In this document: positions 48,633 through 48,767 of the stretch, piece after piece
Position numbering within the stretch: the stretch's first letter is position 1
Layout: every line of letters begins with the position of its first letter
NCBI GenBank assembly: GCA_031403195.1
Contig: JANNSZ010000095.1
Coordinates: forward strand, 4,681-68,680
Length of the DNA: 64,000 nucleotides
Source: Planctomycetota bacterium
GTDB taxonomy: Bacteria > Planctomycetota > Planctomycetia > Pirellulales > UBA1268
Reading direction: 5' to 3'
The notes under the pieces: generated by a model
What the model was told of the DNA's origin: nothing
What the model saw: the letters and a program-made list of their open reading frames with translations, nothing else
Database searches by the model: none
Translations under genes and position numbers: made by a program

Positions 48633-48648
48633 GGGAAATCCTTGAGTC

Positions 48649-48702
48649 GTGTGTGTGTGTGTGTGTGTGTGTGTGTGTGTGTGTGTGTGTGTGTGTGTGT
48701 GT
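48649..48702. repeat. (GT)27 dinucleotide microsatellite
   Basis: 54 bp of uninterrupted GT. Confidence 0.95.
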
Positions 48703-48767
48703 GGATATTGGCGAGCGATCACCGCTCGGTGTAGAAGCCAGATTTCGATGTGGCGCAGGCAACATGG

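Follow-up and report, generated by a model that had tools for sequence, protein, structure and literature searches.

A genome-unique GT/AC tract before a DUF1580 gene of a planctomycete prophage-like element, tentatively read as a CA-repeat leader

Simple-sequence switches have, to our knowledge, been described almost exclusively in host-adapted pathogens, whose surface structures they vary. The (TA)n tract of hifA/hifB is a repeat switch of the promoter-spacer type, and slippage-driven regulatory repeats are already known as a kind. The repeat of N. meningitidis nadA is described as a promoter-distal switch (PMC2791445), the in-frame contingency loci of host-adapted bacteria are treated in a review (PMC11868660), and in H. 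influenzae hmw1A the number of repeats in the transcribed 5' untranslated region (UTR) is described as setting expression (PMC12721329). In E. coli, synthetic CA-repeat 5' tails are described as standby sites and enhancers of translation (Sterk et al. 2018, PMC5934652); placed 5' of the ribosome binding site (RBS), such tails raise translation in a length-dependent manner with a maximum at 16-18 nt, (CA)8 gives a 9-fold increase over the natural standby site of MS2, and the authors find it puzzling that CA-rich sequences are so strong. Here we describe a natural tract of this composition in a Planctomycetota bacterium (assembly GCA_031403195.1). The stretch of DNA analysed, hereafter the window, comprises 64,000 nucleotides of contig JANNSZ010000095.1 (positions 4,681 to 68,680), and all coordinates refer to it. 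Within it, a pure (GT)27.5 tract, read as AC on the sense strand, precedes the RBS of a gene of the DUF1580 family that adjoins the integrase gene of a prophage-like integrative element.

Such a tract is a real anomaly, and its function is putative. The reading that we favour, at a probability of about 0.4, is that it forms an unstructured leader of CA repeats, prone to slippage, by which translation of the DUF1580 gene is tuned.

A single long AC tract before the DUF1580 gene

A first-pass annotation of the window had proposed a pure GT tract upstream of an excisionase-like gene, lying between a helix-turn-helix (HTH) gene and the Shine-Dalgarno (SD) sequence of the excisionase-like gene, and we confirm both the tract and its placement. 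Tandem Repeats Finder calls (GT)27.5 at 48649-48703 with a period of 2, 100% matches and 0 indels, and a read-out of the sequence over 48300-49200 agrees with the call. On the minus strand, which is the coding strand of the DUF1580 gene, the tract reads (AC)27 over 54 nt; an SD-like AAGGA follows 5 nt past its end and 6 nt before the DUF1580 ATG (48632), which stands 16 nt after the end of the tract. The HTH gene upstream belongs to the Pfam family HTH_17. The features of the locus, with amino acids abbreviated as aa and open reading frames as ORFs, are the following.

46733..46809, plus strand: tRNA-Pro(GGG), the likely integration site and left border of the element (tRNA/Rfam search; drop in GC to the right).
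46948..48246, plus strand: tyrosine integrase gene, convergent with the DUF1580 gene, the two stop codons being 5 nt apart (Pfam Phage_integrase, 8.9e-12; the pairing recurs at 24 of 35 other loci).
48252..48632, minus strand: DUF1580 gene, 126 aa, whose product has a predicted winged helix (Xis/MerR type) at the N-terminus and a conserved helix at the C-terminus (Pfam, alignment, AlphaFold model, VIA-align).
48424..48765, minus strand: open frame from an ATG 2 nt after the HTH stop, reading the tract as Thr-His and running out of frame into the DUF1580 gene (ORF list); probably not a gene.
48633..48648, minus strand: 16-nt spacer between tract and start codon, with the SD-like AAGGA at 48643-48639 (read-out; in the predicted fold, SD and AUG lie in a small weak hairpin).
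48649..48703, minus strand: pure dinucleotide tract, (GT)27.5 on the plus strand and (AC)27 on the sense strand of the downstream gene (Tandem Repeats Finder, read-out, genome scan, shuffles).
48704..48767, minus strand: 64-nt spacer 5' of the tract (read-out, fold).
48768..49028, minus strand: HTH_17 gene, 86 aa from the ATG at 49028, frame open from a TTG at 49091 (Pfam HTH_17, 8.4e-07).

No other tract of this length exists in the genome. A (GT)10 probe gives 18 overlapping matches in the window, every one of them within the tract, and 0 matches in 100 dinucleotide-preserving shuffles of the window. When the whole genome is scanned (113 contigs, 3,912,965 bases, GC 0.64), six dinucleotide repeats of at least 5 units are found; five of them have 5 units and the sixth is the AC/GT tract with 27, the sole dinucleotide repeat of more than 5 units in 3.9 Mb. 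Genes for MutS and MutL are present in the genome, so that loss of mismatch repair does not account for the tract, and the lack of interruptions fits either recent expansion or purity kept by selection. As an uninterrupted short-unit repeat of a length capable of slippage (27.5 units, 100% pure), the tract has one hallmark of a simple-sequence contingency locus, and as a 55-bp alternating purine-pyrimidine run it also has one of a Z-DNA-prone sequence. Elsewhere in the window, a 45-nt tandem repeat occupies 24166-24273 with 2.4 copies and 87% matches.

The spacer 5' of the tract contains a 6-bp inverted repeat with a 5-nt loop (48712-48728), and the AT-rich CAATAT stands directly before the tract; this spacer may hold a promoter or operator. 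No promoter-like site, sigma-70-like sites included, and no terminator-like site was found in 48200-49400.

A question arises, is the tract a product of assembly? Two public DNA runs of one freshwater-sediment study (X1 and X2) contain 0.97 and 0.94 of the sampled words. In each of them, Logan contigs cover 48000-48641 and 48713-49400 with zero differing letters, extend about 34-35 letters more towards the tract from both sides, and then end inside it. Logan contigs are built from a graph of 31-letter words, and such a graph breaks at a longer repeat; contigs that enter the tract from both sides and then stop therefore indicate that the real tract is longer than 31 letters. They support the tract and not its unit count, the length of 27 units being that of the draft assembly alone. 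Runs X3 and X4 match over 131 and 151 letters only, away from the tract. The order of the HTH_17 gene and then the DUF1580 gene across the tract is the same at a homologous locus that has no tract (L003), so the tract does not mark a chimeric join. That an assembler created the tract, or its length, is suggested by the draft state of the genome in its 113 contigs and by the breaking of the public contigs inside the tract, with no spanning read in the data examined; yet ordinary reads are longer than 55 bp, and given the identical flanks entering from both sides in two runs and the matching gene order we regard an artefact as very improbable.

AC tracts in related genomes

We find that the placement of AC tracts across the family is a stronger lead than the single locus. 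Frequencies were taken with (GT)10 on the genus, anchored (GT)9 on the order and anchored (GT)8 on the family. The (GT)10 probe occurs in 2 of 68 genus genomes and anchored (GT)9 in 19 of 401 order genomes (13 of the 301 of good quality), while anchored (GT)8 yields 15 tracts in 13 of 176 family genomes. All 15 were read in context, with ORF calls made within this analysis. AC is on the sense strand in 12 of these 15 tracts of at least 8 units: seven are followed, 12-23 nt past their end, by the ATG of an ORF with at least 100 aa, and five lie in the 5' coding end of genes for secreted proteins. Two of the remaining tracts are ambiguous and one is at a contig end, and a clear sense-strand GT is seen in none of the 15. 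The seven RBS-proximal tracts, with the distance in nt from tract to ATG, stand before the following genes.

DUF1580 gene of the present element: +16.
Ribosomal protein S11 gene, tract in the rpsM-rpsK spacer: +23 (Pfam, 9.1e-46).
Four PEP-CTERM or secreted-protein genes: +12 (Pfam).
Gene for a 202-aa basic protein (L249, G083:C126): +14, tract (AC)10 with an ATCC prefix.

Among the four secreted-protein genes at +12, a PEP-CTERM match is found in three products, over the cut-off in L038 only, and two products are FGE-sulfatase-like. The L249 tract lies between the stop of a tyrosine integrase gene, whose product is 35% identical to the integrase of the DUF1580 locus, and the RBS of the gene for the 202-aa protein, which belongs to no known family; it is a second integrase-linked tract within the genus. 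A search for ATCC followed by (AC)6 returns five sites in 4 of 176 genomes, all five RBS-proximal, against 0 for a reversed control. A conserved leader, with the same 7 letters before the tract and the same SD-bearing 10 letters after it, recurs in 3 of 176 genomes with n = 9, 10 and 13. In L038, L225 and L245 (and, related to them, L247) the leader consists of a short motif, (AC)9-13 and an SD-bearing motif with the ATG 12 nt on, before PEP-CTERM or FGE-sulfatase-like genes; upstream of it in L038 and L245 stands a 13-nt direct repeat in three or four copies. The S11 spacer of the source genome itself contains no CA tract.

The five tracts in 5' coding ends (L241, L242, L243, L244 and L250) come from four genomes of one sister genus. 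They have 9, 9, 14, 14.5 and 21.5 units, encode His-Thr runs and are directly followed by a conserved V-E-Q-L-E-P-R-A-L-L motif. In L242 and L244 the ATG upstream is in frame, in L241 and L243 it is out of frame, and the fifth locus is cut at a contig end. To judge by their sequences, these tracts look like classical on/off phase variation in free-living planctomycetes. The flanks of L241 and L243 are identical at 188 of 190 and 162 of 168 positions around tracts of 14 and 9 units, which indicates that the tracts change much faster than their surroundings.

Beyond the family, contexts are more varied, and at the level of the order include promoter-like hexamers, hairpin loops and obvious foreign microsatellite DNA in poor bins. 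L212 and L213 belong to a different family of the order; their tracts, (AC)15 and (AC)10, are flanked by TTGAC(G/A) and TAAAAT/TAAATT hexamers and stand about 33-35 nt upstream of an SD and ATG, which makes them a variant of the repeat embedded in a promoter. In L218 and L220, long inverted repeats enclose CA/TG tracts of 10-14 units as their loop. Viral contigs contain 17 stretches with ATCC(AC)8, a mixed set with GC from 0.22 to 0.51 and some giant-virus bins, and 6 of these 17 have an ORF start 7-17 nt downstream. In a collection of species-representative genomes, (GT)15 occurs in at least 151 stretches; among the 80 matches listed (L056-L135), 54 come from six metagenome-assembled genome (MAG) assemblies, each of them tract-rich, which suggests that these assemblies hold eukaryote DNA binned with bacterial genomes.

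The element and its candidate excisionases

The locus is a prophage-like integrative element at tRNA-Pro. Past this tRNA, GC falls from about 0.65 to about 0.58, and the element, with its lower GC, is probably recent. To the left of the tRNA lies pyrF, encoding orotidine monophosphate (OMP) decarboxylase; to the right of the HTH_17 gene lie genes of unknown family and genes for a primase-like protein, a family A DNA polymerase (phrog_17 match, 3e-74) and an AAA ATPase (phrog_8638 match, 4.8e-86). No repeat of the tRNA 3' end marks a right border within 46600-64000, and the element reaches the end of the window; elsewhere in the genome, the tRNA 3' end finds only short matches typical of other tRNAs. 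An Rfam search of 46500-50000 at a permissive threshold returns nothing except the tRNA.

Several other repeats accompany the element. Between tRNA-Pro and the start of the integrase gene, a 25-nt near-perfect palindrome (24/25) occupies 46894-46918. Two copies of a 23-nt direct repeat, with 83% identity, are found at 49141-49163 and 61521-61543, the first of them in the divergent control region beside the HTH_17 gene; this repeat may be due to chance. Between the genes for the primase-like protein and the family A DNA polymerase, 53646-53960 is dense with nested 8-11-mers of the GGTGAAG type, direct and inverted, with 60-nt arms that are 85% complementary, and this set overlaps the annotated GTG start of the polymerase frame. 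In its sequence, it looks like a replication origin with iterons.

The product of the DUF1580 gene matches the Pfam family at 54.4 bits against a cut-off of 24.4 (E 9.4e-15) and belongs to it. When 13 homologues are aligned, they begin alike, with M-I-D/M-K-L ... L-A-E-E-R-P, and they share an invariant T-x-x-R-W core as well as a C-terminal helix that is likewise conserved. An AlphaFold (AF2) model built on this alignment has a mean predicted local distance difference test (pLDDT) score of 79.3, exceeding 90 at residues 11-70, and its elements run in the order strand, helix, helix, two strands, helix. A Foldseek search of the PDB with the model gives no match at E of 0.001 or below, and a sequence profile search of solved structures nothing below E 1.5. 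Re-scoring of the Foldseek candidates with VIA-align gives Z of 5.3-6.4 to five excisionase structures, middling values by the tool's own note, which applies the term below 8. The best are Pukovnik Xis (4j2n; Z 6.4, root-mean-square deviation (rmsd) 2.0 A over 52 residues) and, with the same Z of 6.4, BldC; GIsul2 excisionase (8c3t) follows with 6.0, RdfS (8dgl) with 5.9 and lambda Xis (2ief/2og0) with 5.7 and 5.3, and MerR-family N-domains tie with the excisionases. The superposed part covers DUF1580 residues of about 10-75, with an rmsd of 1.8-3.3 A over 49-58 residues. The modelled fold of the DUF1580 protein thus appears to be of the Xis/MerR winged-helix kind, and its role in excision is putative.

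As expected of an excisionase or recombination directionality factor (RDF), the DUF1580 protein is encoded next to an integrase, and an integrase homologue lies within the fetched flank at 24 of 35 other DUF1580 loci (21 of 31 in the genome set and 3 of 4 in the metagenome set). Its match to the Pfam family HTH_17 stays below the cut-off, at 17.7 bits against 27, whereas the upstream gene scores 29.6 bits (E 8.4e-07). The upstream gene also has a weak match (2.9e-4) to phrog_66, 'excisionase and transcriptional regulator', and homologues in L003 and L007. The description of the DUF1580 gene as Xis-like in the first-pass annotation agrees with the modelled fold and with the adjoining integrase but falls short at the HTH_17 cut-off, and the upstream gene is an alternative candidate for an excisionase or regulator; either of the two could be the directionality factor, that is, the real excisionase. 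A full-text search of a limited library found no paper on DUF1580 or its function.

Readings of the tract and known systems

In the reading that we favour, the tract would sit in the transcribed 5' leader of the DUF1580 gene, or in intercistronic RNA from the HTH_17 gene to the DUF1580 gene. As RNA, 54 nt of unstructured (AC)n abutting the RBS would enhance translation or offer ribosomes a standby site of CA repeats. The number of units would determine the output of a DNA-binding protein of the Xis fold, and slippage, with tract length varying in the population, would change that output heritably; the DUF1580 protein would in turn act in excision or in the control of excision. Folding of the RNA predicts the whole tract to be unpaired in the minimum free energy (MFE) and centroid structures, so that, as in a standby site, predicted single-stranded AC repeats of at least 16 nt lie directly 5' of the RBS on the mRNA strand. 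Both the preference for AC on the sense strand and the constant position immediately upstream of the SD suggest action through the RNA and not through the duplex. Given that the tract is real, exceptional and well placed, and that the frame arithmetic discussed below is correct, a length-dependent effect on the DUF1580 gene is a reasonable idea.

Several observations weigh against this reading. The predicted accessibility of the SD..AUG region is 0.51 at every n from 0 to 32, so that folding gives no length dependence; on the same ground we rejected an RNA structural switch. The 27 units are three times the length that saturates in E. coli, and the other RBS-proximal tracts of the family have 8-13.5 units. 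Neither is the tract a conserved part of the module. DUF1580 protein matches occur in 25 of 61 genomes searched, including the source genome (G000), and on four metagenome contigs (the viral contig collection contains no relative); at the 35 homologous loci, where the first-pass annotation had proposed to look for the tract, none has a dinucleotide repeat of more than 4 units, and the tract is not kept at the orthologous site. L003 has the same layout from the HTH_17 gene to the DUF1580 gene, with a spacer of about 95 nt and no tract, and this spacer has diverged too far for an alignment to locate an ancestral seed. The tract is hence private to the lineage of this element and not part of the DUF1580 module. 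As to the family, the leaders of the four secreted-protein genes are homologous, which reduces the seven RBS-proximal cases to about four independent lineages, and the anchored pattern misses about one quarter of those tracts that begin with G. Moreover, (AG)n of at least 8 units occurs in 5 of 68 genus genomes, as does (AC)n, so AC tracts are special in placement only and not in number; the contexts of the AG tracts are mixed, with one of five abutting an ATG and one eukaryote-like. Finally, among the public runs searched, no RNA run contains the locus.

Is it then conceivable that the tract has no function at all? Slippage may have lengthened a short run of AC, located in a spacer that the mobile element does not need, in a neutral or mildly harmful runaway, the proximity to the RBS merely reflecting where spacers exist. 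This is nearly as likely as the CA-leader reading and, taken by itself, still on the unlikely side. The absence of the tract from the homologous loci, its length far above that of the other RBS-proximal tracts, the similar rate of AG tracts in the genus and the flat folding prediction all favour such an expansion, as does the low GC of a probably recent element. It does not readily explain why this is the sole tract of more than 5 units in the genome despite MutS and MutL, nor its perfect purity; and sense-strand, RBS-proximal placement is common to six other tracts of the family, with no clear sense GT, whereas the five AG tracts show no such regularity. A mechanism acting on DNA is a good deal less probable. 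Alternating GT/AC runs are the classic Z-prone sequence, and under negative supercoiling the tract could flip to Z-DNA, blocking or modulating transcription from the HTH_17 gene to the DUF1580 gene, or could form a recombination hot spot. The tract does lie between co-directional genes with no terminator-like site, and the tracts of L212 and L213, between TTGAC(A/G) and TAAAAT/TAAATT, demonstrate that placements at the DNA level exist. However, a duplex mechanism is blind to strand, and the sense strand carries AC in 12 of the 15 family tracts. The related suggestion of the first-pass annotation, that the tract tunes expression by spacing, is unlikely in the form of promoter-hexamer spacing: no -35 and -10 sites flank the repeat, as they would in a switch of the hif type (0 sites in 48200-49400), and 55 bp far exceeds a promoter spacer.

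The first-pass annotation had also envisaged a switch of frame, and its account of the frames is accurate. The ATG at 48765 stands 2 nt after the HTH stop (TAA, 48770-48768) and reads the tract as Thr-His repeats; it is 133 nt from the DUF1580 ATG at 48632 and out of frame with it (frame +1), while a GTG at 48722 is in frame and opens an ORF of 156 aa (48252-48722). The gain of one unit or the loss of two would yield an in-frame fusion. Ribosomes that reinitiate at 48765 after the HTH stop and translate through the tract would thus meet three states, by length modulo 3: at the present length translation continues in the wrong frame for 208 nt inside the DUF1580 gene, with one unit more or two fewer it gives a fused protein with a His-Thr extension, and with one unit fewer or two more it stops at a TGA overlapping the DUF1580 ATG, which could couple the two. 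The arrangement stop-CC-ATG fits termination-reinitiation, and AC-tract frame switching is plausible in the family, the sister-genus tracts occurring in 5' coding ends both in frame (L242, L244) and out of frame (L241, L243). Yet as a working mechanism frame fusion fares poorly. The DUF1580 gene is served by an SD of its own, and its ATG takes the same position as the start codon in 12 aligned homologues, all of them without a His-Thr extension. L003 lacks the upstream ATG, and the GTG at 48722 is not preceded by an SD. The ATGA overlap is no evidence by itself, because the second codon is a conserved Ile. We consider the frame switch improbable, less probable even than an action on the DNA.

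Should the CA-leader reading hold, a simple-sequence switch would exist in a free-living freshwater planctomycete, in the control region of the excision module of a mobile element. If the amount of the Xis-fold protein depends on tract length, the stability of the prophage would itself be a trait that is inherited, can revert and can mutate. The same layout before ribosomal, PEP-CTERM and integrase-linked genes would further provide natural material on which to study why CA-rich leaders are so strong. A wider proposal, which we put forward as speculative and rather unlikely, is that the family AC tracts at RBSs are natural counterparts of the CA enhancers and act as mutational dials, the 27-unit tract varying the dose of the Xis-fold protein heritably and so hedging between the integrated and the excised state by slippage rather than by a repressor circuit alone. 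If tract length does not set the level of that protein, the locus is a rare case of a microsatellite that has grown unchecked in a bacterium whose mismatch repair is intact.

How does the locus compare with known systems? A full-text search of a limited library found no paper on repeat-controlled excision or the control of excisionases by repeats, and none on simple-sequence switches in Planctomycetes. The fold of the winged-helix, MerR-like excisionases and RDFs superposes with the DUF1580 model, and here too the gene lies beside an integrase. In those systems, however, xis precedes int, whereas the DUF1580 gene converges on int; the DUF1580 protein has an extra conserved C-terminal helix, the Z-scores are below 8, and BldC and MerR N-domains score equally.

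With the synthetic CA tails, as far as they are described in the source (PMC5934652), the DUF1580 gene shares unstructured CA/AC repeats directly 5' of the RBS, and their optimum of 16-18 nt matches the other family tracts of 8-13.5 units. The tails are engineered, located at the 5' end and placed before a strongly structured RBS, whereas the DUF1580 tract is a natural sequence of a planctomycete; it has 54 nt, may lie inside a transcript of two genes, and precedes an RBS with weak predicted structure. In hmw1A, likewise, a leader repeat upstream of the coding region sets expression post-transcriptionally by its copy number; there, by the account in PMC12721329, heptamer units form a long hairpin that RNase III cleaves, with variation demonstrated, and here the unit is a dinucleotide predicted to be unpaired. 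The switches of hifA/hifB and nadA have in common with the tract a short repeat in a regulatory region that is changed by slippage. They act on promoter spacing or operator geometry; no hexamers flank the DUF1580 tract, and its 55 bp exceed the length of a spacer. As in the in-frame contingency loci, a pure repeat lies near the 5' end of a gene, and the sister-genus AC tracts occur in on and off frames; the DUF1580 tract differs in standing outside the conserved frame and before a gene of a mobile element, not a surface antigen, in a host that is free-living in freshwater sediment according to the run labels. What sets the locus apart from the known repeats is therefore a dinucleotide on the mRNA strand against the RBS, a free-living planctomycete as host, and the excision module of a mobile element as target.

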